A stretch of 25,891 nucleotides of DNA from a virus. How positions within the stretch are numbered: the stretch's first letter is position 1; every line of letters begins with the position of its first letter. The notes under the pieces are model-generated. The model was given only the letters and a program-made list of their open reading frames with translations. It did not search any database and was not told the DNA's origin. The position numbers and the translations under genes are program-made. This document shows positions 53 through 23,260 of the stretch, piece by piece. The DNA lies in the UHGV virus genome UHGV-1543656; one strand, written 5' to 3'.

Positions 53-403
53 TCAGAAAAGAGAAGATTGCTGTGGAATAGCCGGAACTGCTCCGATCTC
101 TGGAAGCGTTTTACGTAAGTCTTCCCACAGGGTATGTACCAGTTCCGGGGCCTGGGCAATATCTGGCGTATGTAAAAAAAGATAAGGCGTAGTGGTCTGA
201 TGCCACTGTGCTAATTTTTGTAACCAGACCTGAAATAACTCCCGGTTTTGCGTCATATCATCACTACCGATAAAACGGATCAGTGGATTTTTCGCCGTCA
301 GTACAGCATGTACCGGAACTTTAGGTTTTTTTCGTTGAGCGTCGCGAATAGCTTCACTGTGTGGACGTGCTGCATGAACCGGGCGGCTGTCTAAAATCAT
401 CAA
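53..403 (-). pseudogene. yecE: 3' (C-terminal) fragment of a host DUF72-family gene, separated from its 5' part by the ~11.2 kb insertion
   Basis: Track ORF 53..403. Same strand as the 11579..11980 fragment. Joining the two across the AAAATCA core gives an in-frame read VNRVI-LDSRPVH. DUF72/yecE assignment is from memory of the VEGNTT-YALP motif and of yecE as a known lambdoid/Stx phage integration site; not searched. Confidence 0.6.
393..399. repeat. attL core (AAAATCA) of the serine-integrase element
   Basis: Junction read gtctAAAATCAtcaagg: host sequence to the left, element sequence to the right. Confidence 0.6.
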
Positions 404-415
404 GGTCTAAATACA

Positions 416-438
416 CTATGAGGTTGATTCCTAGAACA
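416..438. repeat. 23-bp repeat ctatgaggttgattcctagaaca, copy 1 (abuts attL)
   Basis: Its perfect reverse complement is at 767-789 and a degenerate third copy at 1173-1204. Confidence 0.7.
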
Positions 439-754
439 TACCTGTTAATAACAGGACATAAACAGGTTAGTACCTATGCAATTTAACGGTGTATTTATGC
501 GCTATCTATGCAATTCTACACAGATTCTATGCAGTATCAGTATAGTCTCTTTTTACCCTAACTTATTGAAATATATAGAGAATCTGTGAAGTCTCTTTTC
601 AGGGTAAACTGTATCGTGTTAGTCGTCCCTCTCTCGACTCCTAGAAAAGTGCTATATACAGGAGTATATAACGCTATTCATGCAGTTGGTCACCATACGT
701 TACAGTTGCAAGAGATAACAATCAGCTACGTGAAAGTTAGAAAGTGATGGTTAC

Positions 755-789
755 AGTTGATTCGGTTGTTCTAGGAATCAACCTCATAG
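755..789. repeat. Inverted copy of the 23-bp repeat, extended 5' by agttgattcggtt
   Basis: tgttctaggaatcaacctcatag is the exact reverse complement of 416-438. The related copy at 1173-1204 shares both ends (agttgattcggtt ... aacctcatag). Confidence 0.7.
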
Positions 790-1519
790 TTACCTTGTCA
801 AATCTTCGTAGTCCCTTCTTAAAAAATCACTTACAGACACCTTAATATCTATACAGATTTCATGTAGAACACGATTAGTGCGTAAAACAGCTATTATGTT
901 AAAAACGTACTGTATATGTATCAGTACTGATTTATAAGGGTTTTATGTATTTGAAGATAAGAGGCTATACAGCACCTTGAGAGCATGTCTTGTAAGTCAT
1001 TGATACATAAGGTCACAGAAGTTTGTGTCTGTTAAAGAGAAAACTGGGGAGGACTTCACAGGACTATAAAATGTTACAGCTATTGATAGGTTAAATCTTC
1101 TTGATAGATGCTGTGAAATGTGATGAAGGTTTTTTTGAGGTGGAGCTAACAGATGCTATGAAGAAAGTCAATAGTTGATTCGGTTTATCGAATAAACCTC
1201 ATAGATATTTTAAAATTCTGCAAAGGGGGTCACATAGCTGGTGTGACGGGTACTTAGCAGCTACAGACATCTGTCAGATATTTTCGAAGTTTTTTAGAAG
1301 GGGAATTTGAAGAGGGGCTACTACGATTTTATAAAAATTTTCAGAGTCTGAAAAGTTACTGTACAGATTTAATACAGATATCTTTAAAGTATCTGTAAAA
1401 ACTTTTAAGATAAAAGATAGATATCCCAGAAAGGATATCCGTTTAAAAAACCTGTTAAGTATCTCTTAAAAGAGAGTAAACCTTGTCAAGAGTGATTGCA
1501 ATAAAAAATTTTATTTCTT

Positions 1520-2182
1520 ATGTCAATTGAGCATATTTTAATCGGGAAGCATCATGGTGGTTCTGATGACTGGCGTACACCGTATCGTTTATTTCGTAAC
1601 CTGCATCGTGAATTTGGTTTTTCGATGGATGGTGCTGCAACTAAGCATGACGCATTGCTACCACGGTTCACCGATGATATCCACAATCAGTCATGGGTTG
1701 GTGAAAAGGTATTCTGTAACCCACCATACAGCGATATTCCGTCGTTCCTCTTAAAAGCGTCTGAATCAGATTTAGCGGTATTCCTGATACCGTACCGACC
1801 CCACACCACATACTGGCTTAAGCACATCTTCACAAACCCGCTTTGCCATGAAATCCGTATTCTTCATCGCGCAGTTAAATACCTTCCACCAGCAGGGCAT
1901 AACGGGCTTACTACTAGGTCACCGTTTGCTGCTGCAGTCGTTGTTTTTAAAAAAGAATCACGCAGGCATGAAATTACGCAGATGGTTTGCTGTGCTGACA
2001 CGCTATTACCGTTAACCATCATTAACCGTGGTGGACTAAGAGGAAGACCCACCATTTACCCACCTGAGACGCTCGACAGCTTCATAAAGCTATACAGGCA
2101 AGGAAAACCCATTAAGTGCATTGCAGATGCTCTCAGAATGCCTCTGAGCACGTCATACAGGATTGCTCAAAGGTTGGGCTAA
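1520..2182 (+). CDS. Phage-type N6-adenine DNA methyltransferase (Dam family) with C-terminal HTH
   Basis: DDWRTPYRLF...EFGFSMDGAAT...ALLPRF...FCNPPYS matches the catalytic NPPY motif and the upstream pattern of phage Dam methyltransferases. C-terminus IKCIADALRMPLSTSYRIAQRL looks like a resolvase-type HTH. Confidence 0.75.
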   Translation: MSIEHILIGKHHGGSDDWRTPYRLFRNLHREFGFSMDGAATKHDALLPRFTDDIHNQSWVGEKVFCNPPYSDIPSFLLKASESDLAVFLIPYRPHTTYWLKHIFTNPLCHEIRILHRAVKYLPPAGHNGLTTRSPFAAAVVVFKKESRRHEITQMVCCADTLLPLTIINRGGLRGRPTIYPPETLDSFIKLYRQGKPIKCIADALRMPLSTSYRIAQRLG

Positions 2183-2565
2183 AATTCTCATAAATATGGT
2201 CATTTACAAGACAGGCGATTCAGATATTAAGAAGTATTCCTGTGAACAATAAATGACCAATCAGTAATTATTCTGTGAAATAATTGTTGCAATTTATAAT
2301 CACACATGGTATAGTTTCATAGTGGGCTGATAAAAGAACTCAGAACATTAAGAGGTTACAACGTTGGGAGGCGTCAGGGTATTGACGGATTTTCACGGCC
2401 TCTTATTCAATCAAGGCTTTTCCTTTTGCTGTTAATACTCGCGTAATCACTTAGATTTCTGGGTTCCTTTATCAGTCCATCTTCTAATTAATTCACTCCC
2501 TCTGGGGTTGGTCACTATACGTGGTCAGCCCTTTCTTTGTTTTATTTTTAAAAAGGAAAATATAA

Positions 2566-3527
2566 TGGAAAAATTTCACATGTTTGATGACCGTATTTAT
2601 CAGATGACTAATGGCGTTAAAGCTGCCGACCGTATTATTTACACTGTCATGTTGAATGAACAAAAGTTTTATCACGATAAGGGGCAATATTATACCCCTT
2701 CATATGCTCATCTTGGTCAGTATGCTGGAATCACAAGAACATCCGTGATTGCATGTATGAAACGACTTGAGGCACATGGTTTAATCAAGAAAACTAACGT
2801 TGCAAGCAATCAGTGTGTTATTAAAGTTTATTCACTTGATGAAGTACCGGAAGTTTTAACAGAGCTTACAGCTAAGGAAGCCAGAAAGGCAAAGCTGGAG
2901 TCTAAAGTTACTCAGTCAGTCAAGAAAGATGACCCACTGAGTCAAAATTCTTTACCCACTGAGTTAAAATTTTTTACTCAGTCAGTCAAAATCTTTGACA
3001 CGTATAATAACAGTAATAACAAGAAAGAACTTATTAATAACAATAAAGAAGATGACTTTGAAGAAGAATCTCTTAAGAAGGGAGCTTCGCTCTGTGATTC
3101 ACATGAATGTGATTCTCTTGATATTGAAGAGGCTATTAAAGAGACTGTTAAAACATCTGACTTAGATGACCTTGATAGTGAAGCTACTAAAGAGGCTGTT
3201 AAAAAGGAAGATAAAATCTCTGATGTGAATGAAGTTAGTGACCAGCAAGATACACCTTGCCGCCTCGAATCAACTGATGATGAATTACCGGATGTTGACC
3301 TTGATGATGAAGAAGACCCTGAAGAGGAATTGAAACGTGAACAGCGTAAAGCAGAAATTAAAGAAAGATTCAGAAAGGCTAAGCTAAAGAACAGAATTGA
3401 TGAACTTGATGACTTTGATGATAGTGACGATGATGACTTTTCTTTCACACCAAAAAAGAAAACCCACACTGAACCGAAGAAAGAAAAAGTGAAAGTAAGA
3501 CGTATTTATGCTGGAGGTATGCGCTAA
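2566..3527 (+). CDS. Winged-helix DNA-binding protein (replication-initiator or regulator-like) with long acidic low-complexity C-terminal region
   Basis: Track ORF 2508..3527; start moved to the in-frame ATG at 2566 (MEKFHMF), which has an AAGGA-like RBS. N-terminus ...AGITRTSVIACMKRLEAHGLIKK resembles a wHTH. C-terminal ~180 aa are D/E-rich with K-rich stretches. Confidence 0.45.
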
Positions 3528-3817
3528 TGAAAGAATTTCACGGTGAAAAACGATACAAAGATTACCTGTTAAAGCGTTACAGCATTTCTCGTGAGGGTCA
3601 CCTTATGAAGGATACTTATGGGGAGGTTTACCGGATTCGACCGAAGAAAGAAGGGAGGGATTATTATTTCGTCGATGGTGTGACAGATTTAAAGATTGAC
3701 GCTTTGAGGTTTGCAGTGCTGTATCATTATGATATCTGGGATTCAGTCCACCAGCTACGATTAAAAGACGGTGACCCCGGTAATCTGAGGGCCACCAATA
3801 TCATCACAAAACGTTAG
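3527..3817 (+). CDS. Hypothetical protein, possibly HNH_3-like nuclease fold
   Basis: Start overlaps the upstream stop, suggesting translational coupling. YYFVDGV...VHQLRLKDGDPGNLRATN weakly resembles the HNH_3 / NUMOD-type pattern. Low certainty. Confidence 0.35.
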   Translation: MKEFHGEKRYKDYLLKRYSISREGHLMKDTYGEVYRIRPKKEGRDYYFVDGVTDLKIDALRFAVLYHYDIWDSVHQLRLKDGDPGNLRATNIITKR

Positions 3818-4071
3818 TTTGTTTTACCATCATCAATCGTAATTGTGATTTCATATTTGAAAAGCTTAATGCTGAAATTGAATCGTGTACTTTTGGCGAT
3901 AATCATTTTTAAAAGCTGATACACCAGAAGCACCAGAAACACAAAGCAACCTAAGCTTGCGAATCTGTGAGATTCAGCAATTGTTTCAAGAAAACCCATT
4001 AACTCCCCTTATTTATCAAAGGGAATGACCTGTATCAGCCCCTATAACCATATTAACATGTAAATGAGTTG

Positions 4072-4100
4072 TTGACAATATGTTAAATATATGTTAAGAT
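4072..4100 (+). promoter_or_regulatory. Sigma70-like promoter with a direct-repeat operator in the spacer
   Basis: TTGACA (4072-4077), 17-nt spacer, TAAGAT (4095-4100). The spacer carries the direct repeat atatgttaa / atatgttaa. Followed by RBS TAAGGAG (4121-4127) and ATG at 4136. Confidence 0.5.
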
Positions 4101-4135
4101 TGTAGTATGAGTAAGAGATTTAAGGAGATTTTACA

Positions 4136-4426
4136 ATGACTCACACAGTTACACGCCTTTTGCCAGAGGCATTTGAACGACTGGCAGCAATCAAAGCTAA
4201 ATATCCCGATATGAAGCACACAGCGCTTGTTGGAGAGCTTTTAAAAGAGTCGGTATCCCTGACCCCTTTCGATAACGTTAAGGGTGTTGCAGAGGGTTCT
4301 AAGGCCATCAGAATCACAACGGGCCAACTGGAACTACTCAAAGCACAGTCCGCAGTAGCAGGTTGCTCAATGATTCAGGTGTTGAGTGCTAAGGTCCATC
4401 AACTGGCGGATAAATTGGAGGTTTAA
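4136..4426 (+). CDS. Small regulator, ribbon-helix-helix-like
   Basis: Strong SD TAAGGAG. N-terminus TRLLPEAFERLAAIKAKYPDMKHTALVGELLKESV fits the beta-strand plus two helices pattern of RHH (CopG/Arc) proteins. Confidence 0.45.
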   Translation: MTHTVTRLLPEAFERLAAIKAKYPDMKHTALVGELLKESVSLTPFDNVKGVAEGSKAIRITTGQLELLKAQSAVAGCSMIQVLSAKVHQLADKLEV

Positions 4427-4647
4427 TGTGTTACAGGTTCCAATATTCCACACTTGGCAGCCACCTAATCAGACAGAATTTAGCAGATGCTGAATTTGAA
4501 GATGTGACCCTCAAAGCAAACAAACGATTAAAACCCTCTCAAATCCACCAGCTTAAACACGAATTAAAGCCACTGGTAATACTCGACTATAACGACCCTG
4601 AACAGCTTGAGCAGGGAATTAAGCTTATTTCTGAATGGGGTGCTTGA
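4426..4647 (+). CDS. Hypothetical protein
   Basis: ATG overlaps the upstream stop (TAATG); GGAGG sits 4 nt upstream. Confidence 0.5.
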   Translation: MCYRFQYSTLGSHLIRQNLADAEFEDVTLKANKRLKPSQIHQLKHELKPLVILDYNDPEQLEQGIKLISEWGA

Positions 4648-4862
4648 TGAAAACTATCACAGTACAACTTCAGACTAATAAAGCATTTCGTTATTTTGAA
4701 AACTTGCTTGAGTTATACGAAGGATGGGGAAGCATCCACGGCAAAGATGATATCTATCTTCACTTGTCAGCCCCTAACTATTCTCTGAAGGCTCCGGTTA
4801 AGCAAAGCTGGTTAAAAGACTACGGTCACCAGATGGGGCTATTAGTCTCAGACTTGAGCTAA
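4647..4862 (+). CDS. Hypothetical protein
   Basis: Track ORF 4635..4862; start moved to the in-frame ATG at about 4647 (MKTITVQ), where the start and the upstream stop overlap. Confidence 0.45.
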   Translation: MKTITVQLQTNKAFRYFENLLELYEGWGSIHGKDDIYLHLSAPNYSLKAPVKQSWLKDYGHQMGLLVSDLS

Positions 4863-5008
4863 AAACAGTAAAACATATCTCTCAGGCTTTACCAGACGAA
4901 TTCTAAGCGATTTTAAGCCCCTAATCAGGGTAACTTAGGGAATCGCCTTAAGTGGTCTAAAAAAGGGGTTAAAACGTCTTAGAATGCGATACAGGAAGGA
5001 TTTTAAAA

Positions 5009-5314
5009 ATGAATTATTCAATGCAAGTTATGGTTGACCAAGAAACTATGAATTGGCTTAATGACCTGAACAGGTCGGGCTTTAATATCTATTTCATGCA
5101 TTGTTTTGAAGCGTCAACGTATATTGACAAGCATATAATCAACGAAATTAAACTTGGTGACTTTGTTCATAAACTGGAAGTAACAGACCCAGACTACAAG
5201 AGATTTATCACAAGCGAATGCAACCGACTTGATTTAAGCCCGGAGCAATTATTGAAGCTGAATGTATTCTTGACCTATCAGAATGAATTAAACCCTTACA
5301 GTGAGGTGATGTAA
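5009..5314 (+). CDS. Hypothetical protein
   Basis: Track ORF with GGAAGGA-like RBS upstream. Confidence 0.5.
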   Translation: MNYSMQVMVDQETMNWLNDLNRSGFNIYFMHCFEASTYIDKHIINEIKLGDFVHKLEVTDPDYKRFITSECNRLDLSPEQLLKLNVFLTYQNELNPYSEVM

Positions 5315-5391
5315 TGACACTCGTTATTCTCTGGACGGTTTTAGGGCTATTTGTTGGTTGCTGGGTAGGTAATACGGTAAATAAGAATTAA
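5314..5391 (+). CDS. 25-aa hydrophobic peptide (MTLVILWTVLGLFVGCWVGNTVNKN), small membrane peptide
   Basis: Below the track length cut-off. ATG overlaps the upstream stop (TAATG) and has a GAGGTGA RBS 4 nt upstream. One predicted transmembrane helix with a polar tail. Confidence 0.45.
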   Translation: MTLVILWTVLGLFVGCWVGNTVNKN

Positions 5392-5415
5392 TGTTACCAA
5401 TCTGTTAAAAAGCTG

Positions 5416-5444
5416 TTGACAAATAACCTTAAGCATGACATAAT
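5416..5444 (+). promoter_or_regulatory. Sigma70-like promoter (TTGACA-17-CATAAT)
   Basis: TTGACA at 5416-5421 and CATAAT at 5439-5444 with a 17-nt spacer. Confidence 0.4.
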
Positions 5445-5450
5445 TTTAAT

Positions 5451-5645
5451 TATAGAGAGAATTGCTCTCTTATTTCTTTCAACAATTCCATCTACATCTA
5501 GGGATAGTTATTCTGAAAGGTGCAATGCTTTTCGCTACATGGCCTCTTATATAACCTGAGAGGTCATCTCGAAAAGTGCTTAATCATTCATTCATTGAAC
5601 CCTTTACAGCTTTGCCCTAATCATGATTAGGGCTTTCTTTAAGAG
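5451..5645 (+). ncRNA. Candidate small non-coding RNA, promoter to terminator with no ORF
   Basis: Starts just downstream of the promoter above. 5' hairpin agagag-aattg-ctctct at 5454-5470. Ends at the terminator 5614-5640. Longest internal ORF is under 10 codons. Confidence 0.25.
5614..5640 (+). terminator. Rho-independent terminator
   Basis: Perfect 20-bp palindrome gccctaatca/tgattagggc followed by TTTCTTT. Confidence 0.65.
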
Positions 5646-5886
5646 TTTTTAAACAGAACTTTTAAAGAAAGTTTTTCCTGAAACTTCGTTAACGTTATAA
5701 AGCAAACCTCCAAAGCCCTTCACAGATAAGGATGATTCCATGAATATCCGAATCACCTATGTTTAGGGCTTTTTCAGCTTTTAAAAAGCATACTTGGCAA
5801 ACCGCCTTTTAAGTCTCTTCTAAGTTTAGATAGGCTGTCAGGTGTGCTTTTTAAAAACTGAATATTACTTAGAAGAGGAAAATGAA

Positions 5887-6594
5887 ATGGAAAATCTATA
5901 TATTAACGGTAAAAAGATTGATAGCTTCGGTGACTGGTCACCACAGACTGAACATCCAGCTATCGCTATTCAGCGCAAAGAGCACGATGAAAGAATTGCA
6001 CTTGAGCAAGAGTTAAAGATGTCACCAAAGGAAATCATCTTTGTGACTCCTGAACCTCAAGAGATGCCTGATGTATGCAAAACTGAATCATTACTTGAGC
6101 TTGAGCGTGAATATTACCCACTACTGAAAGCACAAAGAATTAAACTTGATATTGCTTACGATGCGGTTAAGAACTTCGAAGAAACCTCGAAACCTTCAGA
6201 ATATGATATTGCTTACGAGATTAAGTCAAACCCGTTTATCTATTATGAAGGAAACTTTAATGATGGTTTTGGTACAGCGATTGAAGACGTTCCTAAAGTT
6301 CTTCAAAGTATCCCTGAAGGGTTCCGGTTAATTGATGTCAGACAAGCATTAAGGGGTTCTGGTCAATTTATTTTGACGACTGATAAAACAGATGAAGAGA
6401 TTCTTCAGTTAGCTGAAGCTAATTTGACTAAGCATTATTCCGGTAAACTGGATAAGTTAAAGCAAAAGCTTAAAAAAGAACTTGATAGCATGAAAGCGAT
6501 TATTAGTGACTATGAAACGCAGAAGAAGGTTGCTATGCAGGCTGATATTGAGCAGTTAACGAAGATTTCTCAGAAATACAGCAAAGCACTTTGA
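5887..6594 (+). CDS. Hypothetical protein
   Basis: Track ORF 5842..6594; start moved to the ATG at 5887 (MENLYING), which has an AGAGGAAA RBS. Confidence 0.55.
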   Translation: MENLYINGKKIDSFGDWSPQTEHPAIAIQRKEHDERIALEQELKMSPKEIIFVTPEPQEMPDVCKTESLLELEREYYPLLKAQRIKLDIAYDAVKNFEETSKPSEYDIAYEIKSNPFIYYEGNFNDGFGTAIEDVPKVLQSIPEGFRLIDVRQALRGSGQFILTTDKTDEEILQLAEANLTKHYSGKLDKLKQKLKKELDSMKAIISDYETQKKVAMQADIEQLTKISQKYSKAL

Positions 6595-6617
6595 TTATGA
6601 ATTAAAAGAGGTGATTA

Positions 6618-6827
6618 ATGTTTGAAGAACGTTTAGAGACTATTCGGTCTGTTTGTGAAAACTTAAAGTTACAAACTAAGCCAGCCTTAAGAATTAAAAC
6701 CAAACATCAAATTATCACCTCACGCAAACCAAAAACACGCAAGATTCCAAAGTGGTGTATCGACCGTATCCCTTCCGATGCTCAAATTATAGGTGAAACG
6801 GAACTACATTATCTTGTCAGGCATTAA
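6618..6827 (+). CDS. Small basic hypothetical protein
   Basis: Strong RBS AGAGGTGA just upstream of the ATG. Confidence 0.5.
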   Translation: MFEERLETIRSVCENLKLQTKPALRIKTKHQIITSRKPKTRKIPKWCIDRIPSDAQIIGETELHYLVRH

Positions 6828-6876
6828 AAAAGATTGGTTGGGTGTATGAGATAGGTTCTATCGAATCTATAACACG

Positions 6877-6918
6877 GGGAGAGATTATCGATATTATTCG
6901 GTAGTTTCTCCCTTTTTT
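6877..6918 (+). terminator. Terminator-like hairpin followed by a T6 run
   Basis: gggaga ... tctccc then tttttt. The loop is long, so this is uncertain. Confidence 0.35.
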
Positions 6919-6925
6919 GTATGTG

Positions 6926-6996
6926 TGCTACGTGAAATCTTCTGAACAGATATACCCACCAAAAATTATTTTTTACGTAGCTCACGCTTAACAGAG
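6926..6996 (+). promoter_or_regulatory. Conserved 71-nt cis-element, copy A, upstream of the tape-measure-domain gene
   Basis: Terminal blocks tgctacgtgaaatct and cacgcttaacagag are identical to copy B at 9071-9141, with the same 57-nt offset between blocks. Internal blocks atacccac and ttacgta are shared. Confidence 0.55.
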
Positions 6997-7010
6997 GTGA
7001 AATATGAACA

Positions 7011-9059
7011 ATGGCACAATTTAAAGTTGATAGTTTTATCGTTGAGCTAGGCTTCAGCGAGAACGTTATTAAGGGCTTGCAAAGAGTTGAAAAGGCAGCT
7101 TTGCAGTCAGCACAAAGAATTGAACGTAATTTGAATAGAGCGTTTAAGGTCGATACCAAGCAACTTGACAGCAATCTGACAAGTTCTTTAGGGCAACTTG
7201 AAAGGAAGTTTAATAAGACCTTTGACAAGATTGAGCAGCGTCTTAAAAACACTAGAGCGTTTAAGATTAAAACGGAAATTGAGGATACTTTAAAGCCACT
7301 TAGACAGCCAAGACAGCCACGAATTAGCGGCAACAGAGCAATCACAGCGGCTTATTCAGCGAATATGTCTAAGCTGAAAGGTCTTAACCCAATTGTCGAG
7401 AAATACATTAAGAGTCAGTTTTACGCATTAAGTAGTAAATCCAAGACACTTGGAAACGAAGCTTTTAATCGTGAGTTAGCAAAGTTAAATCAAAATCTAC
7501 GTGAAACACTTTCTAAGTTTAACAAGACCACCAGCAAAAATAATCACAGTGAAAATGCTTCAAATGGTTTAGATGTACTAGCTTCAAGTGCAATTAAAGC
7601 GGGTACGGCTATTTACACTTTTCAAAGTGCTTTGGCAGCTTATCAGCGAGTAATGGAAATTGGTTTACAGCGTGCAAGTGCTGAACGTTCAATTGATTTC
7701 GTATTTGATAAAGATGCAGGTCAGGTAAAAGAGTTCACAAAGTCATTAGCTCAAACAACGGGTTTAGATATCGCTGAACTGCAATCACAGTTTGCTGGTT
7801 TCGGTGCTTCAGCTAAAGAGTCTATGGGTATTCAAGGTTCTGAAGAACTTTTTAGAAGTATGATTGGCTATTCTCGTCTGATGGGTCGAAGTGAAGAAGA
7901 GATTAAGCGAGCACTGACAGCATTATCACAGATGGCTGGTAAGGGTCAGGTTATGGCTGAAGAGCTTAAGGGGCAACTAGCTGAAGCTGTTCCTGGTATG
8001 GTTCAGGTATTCGCTAAAGCAACCGGAAAGACTGAACAGGAATTATTTGATGCCATGAAGAAGGGGGCTTTAAAATCTGCCGATACTCTTCAGAAGGTCA
8101 CTCAGGAACTGAATAGACAAATCACCGCTAAAGGTGGCTGGAAAGCTATTTCAGAAAGTACACAGGCACAATTAGGGAACCTGAAAAACTCTTGGAATAC
8201 CACGCTTGATAGTATCTTCAGAGGTTCTGAAAGTGGTCTGCAAGATTTTACAAGAAGCTTAACAACGCTTTTAAACGCTCTTGGTGGAAGTGGTAAAAGT
8301 CTTGGTGAATCTCTTGGTAGCTTGATGACTGATATGTCACATGGTGTCGATAGTCTGGCCGATATTAGTTACAAGGTGCGAGCGTTCTTTGATGAGGTGA
8401 CATTAGCTTATCGTGGTTTAACCGATGAACAAAAGAAAGTTGTTGATGCTTTAGGTTCTGGCTTGATTAATAGTTTAAAAGTCTTGGCTGGTGTTATTGC
8501 TGTAAATAAAGTTGTTGGTGTAACCAGAAGTATTTACGGGCTTATGACTGCTATCACAAGATTAGGTCAGGTTGCTGATACTACAGCGGATAACGTGAAT
8601 AGAAAGAATGGGAAACCATCAAGACTGAATCTTGGGAATATGCTATTAGCTGGTAGCGCTCTCTATGCAGGTTATGAAAGACTAGCCTCTACACCTGAAC
8701 GAATGGAAGCACAAGCTAAATTACCAGAGTTAGCTAAAGAATCTGGACTTAAGCCAGTATTTACTATGGACGATGTGAAAGGTTGGTTTAATAGTGCAGC
8801 TATGAATCTTGCTAACTTCCAGCATCCAGAATTAATCACCATGAGACAAGATGCGGCATTAACGAATACGGATATCCAAAGCCTGAGAGATGAAATTAGT
8901 GCTTTGAGCAAACGTATTCAGGAGCCTGTGAAAGTTTCACTTGGTGGTGAAGTTGCCATTAAACCAGATGAAACCAGCTTTATGACCTTTAGCAGTAATA
9001 TCTACGACCAATACGCAGAAGCTACGCTATTAAGTTCATCATTCCCAGAAGATGATTGA
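7011..9059 (+). CDS. Protein with phage tail tape-measure-type domain
   Basis: 682 aa. Central segment SEEEIKRALTALSQMAGKGQVMAEELKGQLAEAVPGMVQVFAKATGKTEQELFDAMKKGALKSADTLQKV matches the tape-measure domain signature as I recall it. N-terminal part is predicted coiled coil. Confidence 0.55.
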   Translation: MAQFKVDSFIVELGFSENVIKGLQRVEKAALQSAQRIERNLNRAFKVDTKQLDSNLTSSLGQLERKFNKTFDKIEQRLKNTRAFKIKTEIEDTLKPLRQPRQPRISGNRAITAAYSANMSKLKGLNPIVEKYIKSQFYALSSKSKTLGNEAFNRELAKLNQNLRETLSKFNKTTSKNNHSENASNGLDVLASSAIKAGTAIYTFQSALAAYQRVMEIGLQRASAERSIDFVFDKDAGQVKEFTKSLAQTTGLDIAELQSQFAGFGASAKESMGIQGSEELFRSMIGYSRLMGRSEEEIKRALTALSQMAGKGQVMAEELKGQLAEAVPGMVQVFAKATGKTEQELFDAMKKGALKSADTLQKVTQELNRQITAKGGWKAISESTQAQLGNLKNSWNTTLDSIFRGSESGLQDFTRSLTTLLNALGGSGKSLGESLGSLMTDMSHGVDSLADISYKVRAFFDEVTLAYRGLTDEQKKVVDALGSGLINSLKVLAGVIAVNKVVGVTRSIYGLMTAITRLGQVADTTADNVNRKNGKPSRLNLGNMLLAGSALYAGYERLASTPERMEAQAKLPELAKESGLKPVFTMDDVKGWFNSAAMNLANFQHPELITMRQDAALTNTDIQSLRDEISALSKRIQEPVKVSLGGEVAIKPDETSFMTFSSNIYDQYAEATLLSSSFPEDD

Positions 9060-9070
9060 TAATAGTCGAA

Positions 9071-9141
9071 TGCTACGTGAAATCTGTAAAGCTAATACCC
9101 ACACTGAAAAATAGAATTTACGTACAACACGCTTAACAGAG
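9071..9141 (+). promoter_or_regulatory. Conserved 71-nt cis-element, copy B, upstream of the 264-aa gene
   Basis: See copy A. The 11-mer GCTACGTGAAA also occurs at 726-736. Confidence 0.55.
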
Positions 9142-9216
9142 AAAACACTTATATATCAAAGGCTTGGTTAAAAATGATTAAAATACACTAAGCCTTTGAA
9201 ATCAAAGGGGAATTTA

Positions 9217-9990
9217 ATGATTTACTCTAACCAAATCAAATATAGTGGCAAAGACGGCATCTATTTCCACTTAAGAGATAATGTAGATGCCTTCTTAACC
9301 TTATCAGCAACTGAAAACATGGAATTTGATAGTCCTATGCAGGTGACTACACAGAACATGCAATCAGGACAAACCGTTACAGATAATGTGCAAAGAGCAC
9401 CCAGAACAATCACTATTAGTGGTGTCGTTGTAGTTGGCTATGAAGGAAGCTTATTATTAACTCGTCAGGGTCAATTAGTAGAAAACTTCATCGACACTCT
9501 TGAAAGCTGGCGTGACCAGAAACAGATTATTTCGGTCATCTGTAAAGACGGAATTAAAATTGACGATTCCATTATTACGAGTTTTAAAGCCTCTAAAGAT
9601 GTGGGGATTTCAAACGGTCTAAGAATCCAGCTAACTTTTCAGGAAATTAACTTCAAAGCTATTGTTGGTCAGACTGATATTTCTGCTGCAACTGGAAAGA
9701 CTGCTACCACGAATGATGGTGGTGCAACTTCTAAGAAGAACACTGGTAACACTACGACAAGTCTAGGTAATGGTATGTTGCTGTGTCAGGAGCTATATAA
9801 TCGCTCTACGAGTGAACTCACTAATGAGCAACTTCAAGCCCGTATCAATTGTGGTAAAAGTGTCAAAGTTGAGAATGGAAAAAGCACCTTCTCAGATGCC
9901 GCTAATGCGCAAGCTTCAAAGGTGCTTAATAATGCTGGTACAGGTAGTACTTTGAAGAAATTTTCTGTGAATCCTAACAAGCGATTCTGA
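9217..9990 (+). CDS. Hypothetical protein, possibly virion or tail-tip associated
   Basis: Track ORF 9196..9990; start moved to the ATG at 9217 (MIYSNQ), which has an AAGGGG RBS. Beta-rich N-terminal half and a Thr/Gly/Asn-rich linker. Functional guess rests only on its position after the tape-measure-domain gene. Confidence 0.4.
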
Positions 9991-10004
9991 CGATAGAATC
10001 TCAA

Positions 10005-11528
10005 CTATATGATAACCTCATCAACATCTATCAACCCCCTCTCAGTGACTTCAGAAAGCGACTGTATAGCCTCTGTAACGTCCTCTGAGGGGGTTTCTGT
10101 TATTGGTAGGGTGATTGACTTACTATTGTGAAAAGTTACTTTACAGCGACGTTTAGCAGTATTTAAAATGACCTCTTTAACAGCACTTTTGATTATCAGT
10201 TGTGCTTCAATCCTTCCCGCCTTTGTAGTCAAGTCACAATCAGACAAACAACCAACATCAATAGATTTAAGGCGTTGTGTCTCCTTCTCGATATCCGCAT
10301 CAACCTGTGATAGCTCACCTTTTAACTGTTTTAGTTTGCTGGTAATAGCGGACAAGTCTTCAATTTCAAGTGATAGCTGTACCAGCTTTTCAATATTGCT
10401 TGAGATGTGTTCACGGTGTAGCTTCAGTGTGTCTATGGTATTCGTCATATCGCTATCAAATCGGTCTATACGGGATAGCAGGGCAAGCAATGTACCATCG
10501 GTTTGCTTACGTGAAAGTCCTTTAGCACTACAACGGTTTTCATTACGAAGAGGACAACGATAAATCCCGTTTCTTGTATCGCTAAAGCCTGTGATAATCA
10601 AAGCATGACCACATTCAGAACAACGGATAACACCTTTGAAAAGATTCACACTCAATGGTTTATCTGAAGCAGGCTTTCTTCCATAACGAGAATATGATAG
10701 TTGCTGGACTTTGTAGAAATCAGTCTCAGGGATGATAGGGGGGAAATAACCAGCTATCTCCTCACAGCCTTTAGGTGTGAAGTAACCAATTACAGAGCGA
10801 TTTTTCAGAAGGTCTTGCACTGAGGTTTGACCAAACTTACCTGCTTTGTACTGGTTAAGTGTCTGGTGACCTTCATCATTAAGAGTCCTGACAATCTCCC
10901 AAATAGACTTACCCTCTAACCGTAATTGAAAGCACCTCTTCACAGTTTCTACCTTCTCAGGTATCACAGAGAAGGTCTTACGGTCATCATTAAGCTTAAG
11001 CCATGCAGGACAACGCTTATAAATCTTGATACCGGCTTTAGCAGCTTCTTTCTTTGCATCCCATGCAGCTTGGATACGTTCAGATTTACGCAAACTCTCC
11101 TCATGCGACCGCTGCATTATCAAAATGCTTTTAATCAGAGCTAACGGGTCTTTTAAGCTTTCCTTTGTGTAATGTTCACCATCGGACAAGGTGACCACAT
11201 CTACACCAGAGCGAAGAATGTTTCTGAGTAGCTCACTTGCTTGGTCTACATCTTGACGTGACAGACGGTCAAGAGATTCTATCAAGAGCGTATCACCAGC
11301 TTTAACAAGCCCTTTCTCGATAGCGGTTAAAAAGTCACCTAAGCCACCTTTCAAGTGCTTACCAGTGAACCCACTCACCCCCAAATCACGAAAAGATAAA
11401 TCTTGGTCAAGGTAGTACTCAGGATGAGCCTTAAGCCAGTCATTAACCATCTTAGACTGTCGGCGTAATGAATCACCTCGGGATTGCTTCTCAGATGAAA
11501 ACCTGATGTAAGAAATGGCACGTTTCAT
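10005..11528 (-). CDS. Large serine recombinase (integrase)
   Basis: N-terminal resolvase-type catalytic domain (YIRFSSEKQ with the catalytic Ser, then SLDRLSR). Followed by a recombinase domain, a Cys-rich zinc ribbon (CSECGH...YRC) and a C-terminal coiled coil. Sits next to attR. Confidence 0.9.
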   Translation of the reverse strand: MKRAISYIRFSSEKQSRGDSLRRQSKMVNDWLKAHPEYYLDQDLSFRDLGVSGFTGKHLKGGLGDFLTAIEKGLVKAGDTLLIESLDRLSRQDVDQASELLRNILRSGVDVVTLSDGEHYTKESLKDPLALIKSILIMQRSHEESLRKSERIQAAWDAKKEAAKAGIKIYKRCPAWLKLNDDRKTFSVIPEKVETVKRCFQLRLEGKSIWEIVRTLNDEGHQTLNQYKAGKFGQTSVQDLLKNRSVIGYFTPKGCEEIAGYFPPIIPETDFYKVQQLSYSRYGRKPASDKPLSVNLFKGVIRCSECGHALIITGFSDTRNGIYRCPLRNENRCSAKGLSRKQTDGTLLALLSRIDRFDSDMTNTIDTLKLHREHISSNIEKLVQLSLEIEDLSAITSKLKQLKGELSQVDADIEKETQRLKSIDVGCLSDCDLTTKAGRIEAQLIIKSAVKEVILNTAKRRCKVTFHNSKSITLPITETPSEDVTEAIQSLSEVTERGLIDVDEVII

Positions 11529-11578
11529 TGTTCACCTCAAAACTGATGCCCTAGATTGTATCGTTTTAGATGGTGTAT

Positions 11579-11980
11579 TTAAACGTGTCTAATAAAAATC
11601 ACCCGATTAACGCCGCGCTGATGTAAACCGCGATTAAGCGTTTGTTCCTCTTCCCCTTTGGCGAAAAACTGTGGATGGCGGACTTCCACCCCATAATTAA
11701 ATTCACCGGGAAGAGAATCGAGAAAATGCCAAAGCGCAGGCAGCTCCCGTGGGCCGAATGTGGCAGGCAGTTGCAGCCAGTATTGTCCAATGCGCGGAGC
11801 CAACGGTGACATGCGGGTCAAAAATTCAGTCACTAAATCATCGCAATGCCGTAATGCTGCCTGATGCGAAATGGTCGCCGGAAACTTAAAACAGAAGCGG
11901 AAGTCATCTGTGGTCTGCTCACGCCAGCGCAGGACAACCTCGGGTTTCGGCAGGGCATAAAGCGTGGTGTTACCCTCCAC
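11579..11980 (-). pseudogene. yecE: 5'-proximal fragment of the host DUF72-family gene, truncated at its 5' end by the prophage and at its 3' end by the serine-integrase element
   Basis: Track ORF starts at a GTG. The in-frame upstream sequence has no ATG back to a stop at about 12038. NCVEGNTTLYALP matches the conserved N-terminal motif of DUF72 proteins. It continues in frame into 53..403 once the insertion is removed. Confidence 0.6.
11595..11601. repeat. attR core (AAAATCA) of the serine-integrase element
   Basis: Junction read aataAAAATCAcccgatt: element sequence to the left, host sequence to the right. Confidence 0.6.
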
Positions 11981-21206: not shown

Positions 21207-21427
21207 TCCGCCACATCGTTAATTCCCTGTATCACCGATACAACCGTTGCCCCCGAGTGGGGCAGTGGTTTACCACCAGCAACGGCCTCGTTCTGCGGGT
21301 TTGCCTGGTCAATGCAGAAAGTCAGAAGGTTGTCTGCCAGGTGCAGGGGCGTACTTATACCCTGAGTTACCCGCTGGTGGCGTTTCAGTCCGGAAAAATG
21401 TTTAAGCGTCTGGGAGGTGTCGTATGA
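21203..21427 (+). CDS. Small hypothetical protein
   Basis: Start overlaps the upstream stop; part of the coupled rightward operon. Confidence 0.45.
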   Translation: MIRHIVNSLYHRYNRCPRVGQWFTTSNGLVLRVCLVNAESQKVVCQVQGRTYTLSYPLVAFQSGKMFKRLGGVV

Positions 21428-22350
21428 GTAGCAAGATCCTCGGTAATGTCTGGGATGCATGCGCAGCATATGGCGTCAAAGGTGCAAAACTGATGATTAT
21501 GGCGCGCCTGGCTGATTATTCGAATGATGACGGGGTGTGCTACCCGGGTGTTGAAACCATATGTCGACAGCTTGGATTGGGAGAAAGTACAGTCAGAACG
21601 GCAATCTCCGAACTGGAGGCTGATGGCTGGCTGACGCGTCAGTCACGCCGCAAAGGTAACCGTAATACGTCCAATCTTTATCATCTGAATGCTGATCGGC
21701 TTGAGCAGCTTGCCAGAACTGAGCGGGATAAGGTTGCAGAACTGAAACAGCAGCGCAGACTTTCAGTATTACGTGACCCTTCAGATTCTGAACCTTCAAA
21801 ATCTGAACCGTCAGAATCTGTATGTTCAGGCGTGTTTGACCCTTCAGATTCTGGCAAAAATACGCGTTTGACCCTTCAGAATCTGACTCCAGATCCACAA
21901 GGTTTAAAACATGAACCACCAGTAAATTCAAAACATGAACCGCAAGATATTGGCGCATCCGCTGACGCGTCTGCACCAGCGCGTTCTGCCAGACAGGAAT
22001 ATTCACCGGAATTTGAACAGGCCTGGCAGGAATATCCCAAACGTGCTGGTGGCAATTCCAAATCAGCAGCCTTCAAAGCCTGGAAAGCCCGTATCAGGGA
22101 GGGAATAAAACCGGAGACCATGCTTGATGGCGTGAAGCGGTATGCCGCCTGGGTACGTGCTACAGGAAATACCGGCACACAGTTCGTGAAGCAGGCTGCG
22201 ACGTTCTTTGGACCCGATCGTCACTTCGAAGATTACTGGCAACAGCCAGCCGCTCACGGAGGTGGGCGACAGCGACAGGTCGATGTCCTGGCTGGCCTGG
22301 GAGCCATGTCTGACAAATTCGGTAAATCCAGTAACAAATTGACATTCTGA
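21424..22350 (+). CDS. Phage replication initiator / replisome organiser (O-like)
   Basis: N-terminal HTH-like DNA-binding region. Iteron repeats lie inside the coding sequence. Sits directly upstream of the helicase loader and helicase genes. Confidence 0.6.
   Translation: MSSKILGNVWDACAAYGVKGAKLMIMARLADYSNDDGVCYPGVETICRQLGLGESTVRTAISELEADGWLTRQSRRKGNRNTSNLYHLNADRLEQLARTERDKVAELKQQRRLSVLRDPSDSEPSKSEPSESVCSGVFDPSDSGKNTRLTLQNLTPDPQGLKHEPPVNSKHEPQDIGASADASAPARSARQEYSPEFEQAWQEYPKRAGGNSKSAAFKAWKARIREGIKPETMLDGVKRYAAWVRATGNTGTQFVKQAATFFGPDRHFEDYWQQPAAHGGGRQRQVDVLAGLGAMSDKFGKSSNKLTF
21775..21885 (+). repeat. Iteron array (putative phage origin) inside the O-like gene
   Basis: Five copies of about 15-16 bp, (G)ACCCTTCAGA(A/T)TCTG, at 21775, 21791, 21806, 21838 and 21870. 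Confidence 0.6.
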
Positions 22351-22351
22351 G

Positions 22352-23260
22352 GTGACAGCGATGATGACGATTGACCAACGTGAGAAACAAACAAGACTAC
22401 AGGCGCGAATGGATGAGTTACGGGCAGAAATGGATGAGTTACGGGCAGAGATTGCATTTGCTCAGAAGGGCGAAAAGCCATGGCCTTATCGTTCCTGCCT
22501 GATGCGTGAAGGTCGCGGATATTGCGAAAAACACGGTAAATATCGTACGCATATACTGGTGTGGATCGATCGTAATGGCGAGGACAGAGAAAAAATTTCA
22601 TGCTGCCCTGACTGCTTGATCGCTGAGGCCAGTGATTTGACCATGGAACTGTCGTCCCTCAAGGCGGAAGAACTGACTGATAACGCCGGAATTGCTCTGC
22701 GTTTTCGGGACTGCGAGTTTGATAATTATCTGGAGGTTAATCCTGACGCAGCCAGAAATCTTGCGGCCTGTCGCCGCTATGCGGAGAACTGGCCAGATAT
22801 GCTGGAGAACGGTACCAGTCTTGTTATGACCGGCAGTTGCGGTACCGGGAAAAATCATCTGGCGGTATCAATGGCAAAACACATCATCCGTAACTATCTG
22901 GCCAGTGTGGAGATCACCGACGTGATGCGCCTTACCCGGGCTGTGAAAAACTGCTGGCGGAATGACAGTGAAAAAACAGCGGATGACGTCATTGAGCATT
23001 ATGCGTCACTGGATTTGCTGATTGTCGACGAAGTCGGCGTTCAGTTTGGCAGTGCGGCTGAAATGGCCATTTTGCAGGAAATTATCAATGCCCGGTATGA
23101 GGGTATTTTGCCAACTATCCTGATCAGCAACCTTTCACCGGAAGAATTGTGGGCGTTCATCAGTCCCCGGATTGCCGACAGAATCACCGATGGCGGGCGC
23201 AACTGGTTGTCGTTTAACTGGCCCAGCTACCGTTCTCGTATCGGAGGTGTTGCCGCATGA
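22352..23260 (+). CDS. DnaC/IstB-like helicase loader ATPase with N-terminal Cys-rich region
   Basis: Walker A GSCGTGKNHLA and Walker B LLIVDEVG. Contains a perfect 21-bp tandem duplication at 22408-22449. Confidence 0.8.
   Translation: MTAMMTIDQREKQTRLQARMDELRAEMDELRAEIAFAQKGEKPWPYRSCLMREGRGYCEKHGKYRTHILVWIDRNGEDREKISCCPDCLIAEASDLTMELSSLKAEELTDNAGIALRFRDCEFDNYLEVNPDAARNLAACRRYAENWPDMLENGTSLVMTGSCGTGKNHLAVSMAKHIIRNYLASVEITDVMRLTRAVKNCWRNDSEKTADDVIEHYASLDLLIVDEVGVQFGSAAEMAILQEIINARYEGILPTILISNLSPEELWAFISPRIADRITDGGRNWLSFNWPSYRSRIGGVAA
22408..22449 (+). repeat. Perfect 21-bp tandem duplication (aatggatgagttacgggcaga x2)
   Basis: Encodes the duplicated heptapeptide MDELRAE in frame. Confidence 0.8.

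Follow-up and report, generated by a model that had tools for sequence, protein, structure and literature searches.

A probable RepA_N-like replication initiator with a candidate in-gene origin and a variable acidic tail in a phage-satellite-like island of Escherichia coli

Initiators of the pSK41 RepA_N type (PF06970; PDB 4PTA), found on plasmids of Gram-positive bacteria, consist of an N-terminal domain (NTD), an origin lying within the gene and a C-terminal part. In the 319-aa Rep of pSK41, the 120-aa NTD binds four Rep boxes located centrally within rep, the central linker encoded by the origin is dispensable, and the C-terminal domain (CTD) is essential, genus-specific and binds DnaG; a natural swap of a module of ~500 bp comprising NTD and origin is found in pPR9 (PMC5703833). 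RepA of the Vibrio cholerae element PLE (NTD, PDB 4RO3) was placed in the RepA_N family by structure alone, has a non-coding origin outside repA, and belongs to a family whose iteron signature is a semi-palindrome around an A/T tract (PMC7145576). The RepA_N domain and the origin of PLE covary, and the CTD is shared and hypothesized to recruit the replisome (PMC8263062). In lambda O and the lambdoid O-like proteins, the origin (iterons followed by an AT-rich stretch) also lies in the gene, between the N-domain and the partner-binding part, and types of N-domain and iteron specificity are swapped among relatives.

Here we describe a gene, rep, that appears to resemble lambda O in both respects and has the same overall plan as the pSK41-type initiators. 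It lies in a stretch of 25,891 nucleotides from the virus genome UHGV-1543656, hereafter called the window. According to structure models and sequence comparison, rep encodes a protein that is RepA_N-like by fold, with a putative in-gene origin of the pSK41/lambda O type and an unusual acidic tail predicted to be disordered. We conclude that rep most likely encodes the protein that starts theta-type replication of an integrated island resembling phage satellites, with the origin in the gene. For the combined statement, an initiator with an internal origin and a tail that would act as its recruitment module, we estimate a probability of about 0.6. The gene and its parts are as follows.

2565..3527, plus strand: rep gene, putative 320-aa RepA_N-like / O-like replication initiator, WP_001538869.1 (ORF, RefSeq, PHROG, fold)
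2565..2924, plus strand: predicted N-terminal winged-helix DNA-binding domain, aa 1-120
2908..2999, no strand assigned: iteron-like array of four units in exact 22-bp register (TRF)
3003..3052, no strand assigned: AT-rich stretch, candidate DNA-unwinding element, encoding an Asn/Lys-rich linker (GC scan)
3060..3524, plus strand: acidic C-terminal tail, predicted to be mostly disordered, aa 166-320 (composition, AF2, dN/dS)
3318..3407, plus strand: predicted long charged helix, aa 252-281, EELKREQRKAEIKERFRKAKLKNRIDEL (AF2)
3405..3461, plus strand: conserved acidic-aromatic motif L-D-x-F-D-D-x-x-D-D-[FY]-x-x-x-P-x-K-K, aa 281-299 (16 alleles)
3527..3817, plus strand: 96-aa ORF translationally coupled to rep by an ATGA overlap (ORF call, annotation)

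The ATG of rep occupies 2565-2567, one nucleotide before the start at 2566 given in an earlier sequence-only reading of this DNA, and an AGGA lies 7-8 nt 5' of it. The same CDS in the chromosome of E. coli JNEC-KY173 is labelled WP_001538869.1 in RefSeq. A 163-aa ORF running the other way (2978..3469) arises as the shadow of rep's GA-rich codons. The protein family is narrow, since only 21 matches were found among 1.84 billion representative proteins. Searches of 50,697 phage records with the gene and the protein (megablast, tblastn) returned no match, so rep is not a known phage gene. A sequence search of the PDB with the rep protein gave nothing significant, and no relative came up when GTDB species genomes and IMG/VR were scanned for tail peptide patterns. 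The 96-aa ORF is kept directly 3' of rep in all islands examined, and it had no Pfam or PHROG match and no phage match by tblastn. At the locus of a distant relative (L009, protein P0135), the gene directly after rep (9933-10184) encodes a T5orf172/MUG113-domain protein, a domain also present in CapR of PLE and in Odn, the nuclease that ICP1 uses against PLE, and a 622-aa serine recombinase is encoded upstream.

With an alignment of ten sequences, AF2 modelled aa 10-115 of the rep protein at a pLDDT of 86-95, and the N-domain (aa 1-120) has a pI of 9.2. Structure comparison gave PLE RepA-NTD, RepA_N and DnaD-NTD as the closest folds; the neighbors with the highest Z were initiators, with regulators lower. 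The N-terminal winged-helix fold held in common with DnaD-NTD is a trait of the RepA_N family. PHROG searches matched families named 'replication initiation protein' or 'O-like', with a best E of 3e-11 overall and E 1.8e-7 or weaker for the O-like families. All Pfam matches were sub-threshold, among them winged-helix and DnaD_N, and the best of them were to HTH families of the regulator type, including Crp, MarR and GntR. Neither the window protein nor nine relatives matched Phage_rep_O (PF04492) in Pfam or, at E<=1, the RepA_N profile (PF06970), which sets the protein apart from pSK41 Rep.

The most informative feature of the locus, overlooked in the sequence-only reading, is the origin-like array inside the gene. 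Its four units start at 2908, 2930, 2952 and 2974, and their cores, at 2919, 2941, 2963 and 2985, are 15-bp semi-palindromes, GTCAA-N5-TTGAC, built around an A/T tract; at 22-bp spacing the four cover gene nt 355-435. TRF assigned a period of 22 and a score of 88, and only three tandem arrays in the 25.9-kb window, this one among them, scored at least 50; the array motif had no further occurrence at 0 mismatches elsewhere in the window. The period is not a multiple of 3, and the repeats therefore exist in the DNA and not in the peptide. Semi-palindromic direct repeats with a central A/T tract in the middle of the gene are the arrangement of pSK41-type RepA_N genes, and semi-palindromic iterons were also read in relatives, AACCAGAATTTGGTT in type B and GTGACAAAATGTCAC in type C. 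Directly 3' of the array, 3003-3052 is the 50-nt window of lowest GC in rep (18%, against 37% gene-wide), and the minimum occupies this position in 9 of 9 loci covering five N-domain types, at 12-26% GC. The repeat DNA encodes aa 121-165, an Asn/Lys/Ser-rich linker that does not belong to the tail. In one type-A island (L018, ~1931-1948, corresponding to window ~3000) the AT-rich stretch is longer by 18 nt, in frame, owing to two additional copies of a 9-nt unit, TAATAACAG, which add Asn-Asn-Ser repeats to the linker.

The array was nearly invariant across the seven type-A islands, and the five N-domain types (those of the window, the L002-type, the L004-type, L009 and L011) have arrays of unrelated sequence at the same gene position. 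In each, an array of 22-24-bp units (2.4-3.9 copies) lies at gene nt 345-500, with the AT minimum after it. The repeat units read as follows.

Window (type A): ACCCACTGAGTCAAAATTCTTT
Type B (L002, L003, L005, L007): ACCCAACCAGAATTTGGTTACCT
Type C (L004, L008): GACAAAATGACACCACTACCAGT
L009: AAGACACAGGTGAGGTGAGTCCTG
L011: CTACACCTCTCAAAGCACAGCA

Since each of the five types has its own array, a change of DNA-binding domain goes along with a change of repeats, which is what one would expect of an initiator that recognizes its iterons. Among type-B alleles, the linker codons showed zero synonymous change against a dS of up to 0.26 in the flanking N-domain, which suggests constraint at the DNA level, an argument confounded by recombination. 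DnaA boxes were found only as 1-mismatch matches, scattered and with no cluster at the array. A built-in positive control for an in-gene origin is provided by the neighboring phiP27-like lambdoid prophage, whose O-like gene (21424-22350) contains another of the three arrays scoring at least 50, a 15-bp unit in 3.1 copies at 21774-21820, at the same relative gene position as the array in rep; these are probably the prophage's own in-gene origin iterons. A perfect 21-bp duplication (22408-22449) lies inside the DnaC-like gene of the same prophage. The prophage was rejected as source or partner of the island, as its O-like protein is unrelated to the rep protein (no similarity, E 1.3), the islands occur without the prophage, and the composition differs.

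These data bear on whether the rep protein initiates replication or regulates transcription, a choice that the sequence-only reading had left open in naming a winged-helix initiator or regulator; the description held and can now be narrowed to initiator. Were the protein a transcriptional regulator of the island, the repeats in the gene would be operators or functionless. The identity of the best Pfam matches, sub-threshold as they are, would fit such a role, and so would the RefSeq name, which is only 'helix-turn-helix domain-containing protein'. However, the nearest folds are those of PLE RepA-NTD, RepA_N and DnaD-NTD with regulators ranking lower, the PHROG matches are replication initiators, and four phased repeats followed by an AT minimum, with type-specific sequences that covary with the N-domain in five lineages, have the anatomy of an origin. 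Moreover, the island holds no other recognizable initiator candidate. A pure regulator is therefore very improbable, and we consider it highly likely that rep encodes an initiator with its origin inside the gene, to whose iterons the protein would bind.

Upstream of rep we found a putative control region with the following elements.

2287..2542, plus strand: rep control region (promoter/terminator scan, folding)
2287-2315, plus strand: promoter-like site (promoter scan)
2322-2480, plus strand: structured leader of ~155 nt (folding)
2504-2532, plus strand: terminator-like hairpin with U-tract, just 5' of the rep ribosome-binding site (terminator scan)

The leader folds with an MFE of -82 kcal/mol (z -5.7). 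Its long stem is preserved through seven two-sided changes between two sequence groups, and the terminator-like hairpin is present in both groups. An Rfam search with the leader RNA returned no family. Judged from these sequence features, leader and hairpin could control the expression of rep through attenuation or antitermination.

The tail (aa 166-320) contains 51 Asp and Glu (33%) and 30 Lys and Arg (19%), giving a net charge of -21 and a pI of 4.5, which agrees with the composition described in the sequence-only reading, a C-terminal half dominated by Asp/Glu runs with Lys-rich segments. Counted over aa 161-320, acidic residues reach 34% and the net charge is -23, and none of the other ORFs of the window (15 ORFs of at least 150 aa) exceeds 21% in any 160-aa stretch. 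The length of ~180 aa proposed earlier was too large, the acidic part spanning ~155-160 aa with aa 121-165 belonging to the linker. The term hyper-acidic is an overstatement, because aa 166-250 (38% acidic residues) are followed by a charged helix in which the two signs balance (aa 251-284, 11 residues of each) and by a basic C-terminal end (aa 285-320, pI 9.2). The structure and disorder prediction that had been proposed as a check gave an AF2 pLDDT below 50 at aa 125-250 and 284-320, a single helix at aa 252-281 (pLDDT 78-89 with the alignment, 74-79 from the single sequence) and no fold resembling a DNA mimic. The folded helical CTD of RepA_N proteins is likewise absent from the model, in which this helix is the only element.

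The sequence of the tail is nevertheless maintained at specific positions. Across 16 alleles, and despite 25-35% tail divergence, L281, F284, D286, D290, D291, P296, K298 and K299 of the acidic-aromatic motif are invariant, as are TDDE (237-240), K306, K310, G317 and G318, and the net charge of the tail stays between -13 and -23. The dN/dS is 0.39 for the tail overall and 0.26 at the C-terminal end; the dS of the tail is 0.69, against ~0.2-0.3 in backbone genes. By these sequence measures, the tail is under purifying selection at the protein level with its net charge conserved. Two distant relatives, P0135 and P0138, have acidic tails too. A protein search with the tail by itself returned only fragments of the rep family, and the tail is therefore not a domain shared with other proteins. 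Many of the database entries found for the tail (P0142-P0230) are annotated as partial, measuring 60-180 aa and lying at contig ends or in truncated calls; they may result from assembly breaks or frameshifts in a repetitive, variable region.

The two halves of the gene have separate histories. Of 5,426 complete E. coli genomes, 151 match rep, with at least 80% of the gene covered in only 26 and no such match in the other 125; among the 40 matches listed, nearly all partial ones start at gene nt 485-603 and thus comprise only the half that encodes the tail. The exchange breakpoint lies just 3' of the AT-rich stretch. In the seven type-A islands, the N-domain and origin (2485-3060) diverge by 0-2% with a dS of 0.015-0.03, and the tail (3060-3527) is the most variable segment, with 25-43% pairwise differences. 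This points to the cassette 2485-3060 of the window and L013-L018 as a recently spread replicon on old, diverged backbones, and the low divergence of N-domain and origin could reflect a recent sweep instead of constraint. The tail is a mosaic with at least two allelic forms per segment, and among the 13 island loci read it was found with three N-domain types.

We propose the following working model for the initiator. The winged helix (aa 1-120) would bind the four iterons at 2908-2999, probably in dimeric or oligomeric form; binding would bend the DNA and open the AT-rich stretch at 3003-3052; aa 121-165, encoded by the origin DNA, would serve as a flexible linker only; and the tail (aa 166-320) would bring in the replication machinery, with the charged helix, the LDxFDDxxDD[FY] motif and the basic C-terminal end as candidate contacts. 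No helicase, primase or polymerase was matched in the ten island ORFs scanned with Pfam and PHROG, and the replisome partner would therefore come from the host or a helper, with the replisome of a Felixounavirus-type helper phage the more likely of the two. The same lack of recognizable replication enzymes in the ten ORFs leads us to view the tail, by analogy, as a replisome-recruiting module, a role and partner to which we give slightly less than even odds.

The analogy draws on PLE RepA and pSK41 Rep, the two closest experimentally studied systems, where the C-terminal part appears as the recruiting module. It has clear bounds. The DnaG-binding CTD of pSK41 Rep folds compactly into five helices, whereas the C-terminal part here is acidic and mostly disordered by prediction, and pSK41 is a plasmid of Gram-positive bacteria, whereas rep belongs to an integrated island of a Gram-negative host. 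PLE RepA shows no detectable sequence similarity to the rep protein and its origin lies outside the gene, unlike the in-gene origin proposed here. The PLE CTD is conserved, while the tail of rep is the most variable segment, so that the functional analogy is loose. The host here is E. coli or Shigella, and in place of ICP1 a Felixounavirus is the putative helper. In comparison with lambda O, no P- or DnaC-like loader follows rep, but just the 96-aa ORF, which has no loader signature.

Other roles of the tail have to be weighed against recruitment. It might be a nucleic-acid mimic or decoy that soaks up DNA-binding proteins of the host or helper, such as SSB partners, helicase, nucleases or restriction enzymes, and interferes with the helper phage independently of or besides initiation. 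E. coli SSB and T7 gp2.5 have acidic C-terminal tips, which the acidic-aromatic motif DFDDSDDDDFSF recalls, and SSB, T7 gp2.5, Ocr and ArdA resemble aa 281-294 in acidic-aromatic composition and the whole tail in strong negative charge; here that charge (-21 over 155 aa) is kept in all alleles despite sequence turnover. However, the motif in rep is internal and not C-terminal, the protein lacks an OB fold, and the fold of Ocr and ArdA is missing from the AF2 model, which assigned the tail no confident fold or folded DNA-mimic architecture; nor does the tail have a sequence relative in the PDB. One of ten relatives gave a Pfam match to ArdA (E 0.013), but this match is single, sub-threshold and located in acid-rich sequence. 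The content of 19% Lys and Arg with two basic blocks is also unlike known mimics. High allelic diversity, with a mosaic structure and the elevated dS, would be compatible with an arms race, and in PLE the interference with ICP1 is partly due to the element's own replication (PMC7145576). On the other hand, the tail is covalently joined to an origin-binding domain, which suits local recruitment better than bulk titration, and in the two nearest studied systems the equivalent C-terminal part binds DnaG (pSK41, PMC5703833) or is hypothesized to recruit the replisome (PLE, PMC8263062). We regard a mimic or decoy as unlikely.

An intramolecular role, in which the tail folds back on the basic winged helix and gates or sharpens iteron binding, or mediates handcuffing and copy control, without contacting other proteins, appears similarly improbable. 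In HMGB1, SSB and T7 gp2.5, DNA binding is auto-inhibited by an acidic tail. N-domain and tail, with pI values of 9.2 and 4.5, carry opposite charges that would allow the same here, and over much of aa 166-250 it is charge and not sequence that is conserved. Yet this role leaves the invariant motifs, the conserved helix and the basic C-terminal end unexplained and still needs a source of helicase; it is also compatible with recruitment. A tail without function and under little constraint, the product of low-complexity drift, would agree with the predicted disorder, the frequent in-frame indels and the rank of this segment as the most variable part of the local region, but hardly with a dN/dS of 0.39 falling to 0.26 at the C-terminal end, or with motif residues that are invariant and a net charge that is kept across 16 alleles. 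Its retention with three N-domain types in the 13 island loci, together with the acidic ends of the distant relatives P0135 and P0138, further speaks against drift, which we consider highly improbable. Recruitment of a replisome thus remains our preferred, if tentative, reading of the tail.

The genetic surroundings of rep bear on the partner that such a tail would meet. The main features of the island are listed below.

~397..11596, no strand assigned: 11.2-kb island carrying rep, inserted in yecE (split yecE, annotation)
1520-2182: Dam-family methyltransferase (PF05869)
7011-9059: tape-measure protein
9217-9990: Dit-like tail protein
10005-11528, minus strand: large serine recombinase (Resolvase, Recombinase and Zn_ribbon_recom domains)

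Small ORFs are also present, and the same synteny was found at three attachment sites, yecE, yciI/tonB and ymdF/wrbA. The methyltransferase carries a C-terminal resolvase-type HTH (sub-threshold HTH_7 and HTH_23), an unusual fusion. The left end of the island (404-1519) is a variable cargo region with no annotated gene in the window; its content in other strains is a small serine recombinase, an AP2/ERF-type protein or a hypothetical protein of 306 aa (L002 6585-7133, L004 6862-7437, L005 6369-6893, L003 5447-6367); it may be a defence hotspot.

Felixounaviruses are virulent FelixO1-like myoviruses, and several properties of the island resemble theirs. The Dit-like protein is 83% identical to the product of the Felixounavirus gene next after the tape-measure gene, and the island tape-measure protein shares 28-29% identity with the Felixounavirus ones along its full length, with the same gene order (7011-9990 in the window; 42021-45049 in VpaE1). 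The GC content is 38.8% in the island and 39.5% in a 16-kb stretch of Felixounavirus VpaE1 (L019). GATC is absent from the island (404-11596; 0 against 46 expected), where other palindromic tetramers are normal, and from the VpaE1 stretch (0 against 47 expected). Among the relative islands scanned (L002, L003, L004, L005, L008), four diverged ones have none against 50-55 expected, and that of L008 has no more than three, all of them at the left edge. GATC counts are normal in the flanking chromosome and the adjacent prophage, and the tail Asp codons inspected that precede C-starting codons are GAC and not GAT. Dam/SeqA control of the origin via GATC sites is ruled out, as the island has none. 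The GATC-less island nevertheless encodes a Dam-family methyltransferase.

A large serine recombinase, a RepA_N-like initiator and its own tape-measure and tail-tip proteins related to a virulent myovirus give the island the composition of a PLE-type element, and PLE, whose helper is ICP1, also encodes its own tape-measure protein, chaperone and baseplate hub, a parallel to the tail genes found here. These sequence relationships suggest that the helper is a virulent FelixO1-like phage and the island a PLE-like satellite. The island was not found among IMG/VR contigs searched with the peptide patterns used. A literature search found no description of an E. coli island of this type or of a Felixounavirus satellite, which is not proof of absence.

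RepA_N-type initiators are well studied in Gram-positive plasmids, and in Gram-negative bacteria essentially only that of V. cholerae PLE has been characterized. How the C-terminal parts of RepA_N proteins obtain the replisome is an open question (PMC7145576). The E. coli example offers a compact, delimited replicon, with the DNA-binding domain, iterons and candidate unwinding element within ~500 bp and a natural library of tail alleles attached, so that recruitment can be tested directly in the host that is easiest to work with. A more far-reaching reading, in which we have limited confidence, is that the island represents the Enterobacterial counterpart of PLE, living on virulent FelixO1-like phages, and that the initiator tail is a helper-specific adaptor. 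The island tape-measure and tail-tip proteins would then form chimeric tails, and the hypervariable initiator tail would capture, and possibly sabotage, the Felixounavirus replisome, its alleles diversifying as helper and island engage in an arms race. PLE-like parasitism of virulent phages would reach beyond Vibrio if the island proves to be a satellite of Felixounaviruses, which serve in phage therapy and biocontrol.
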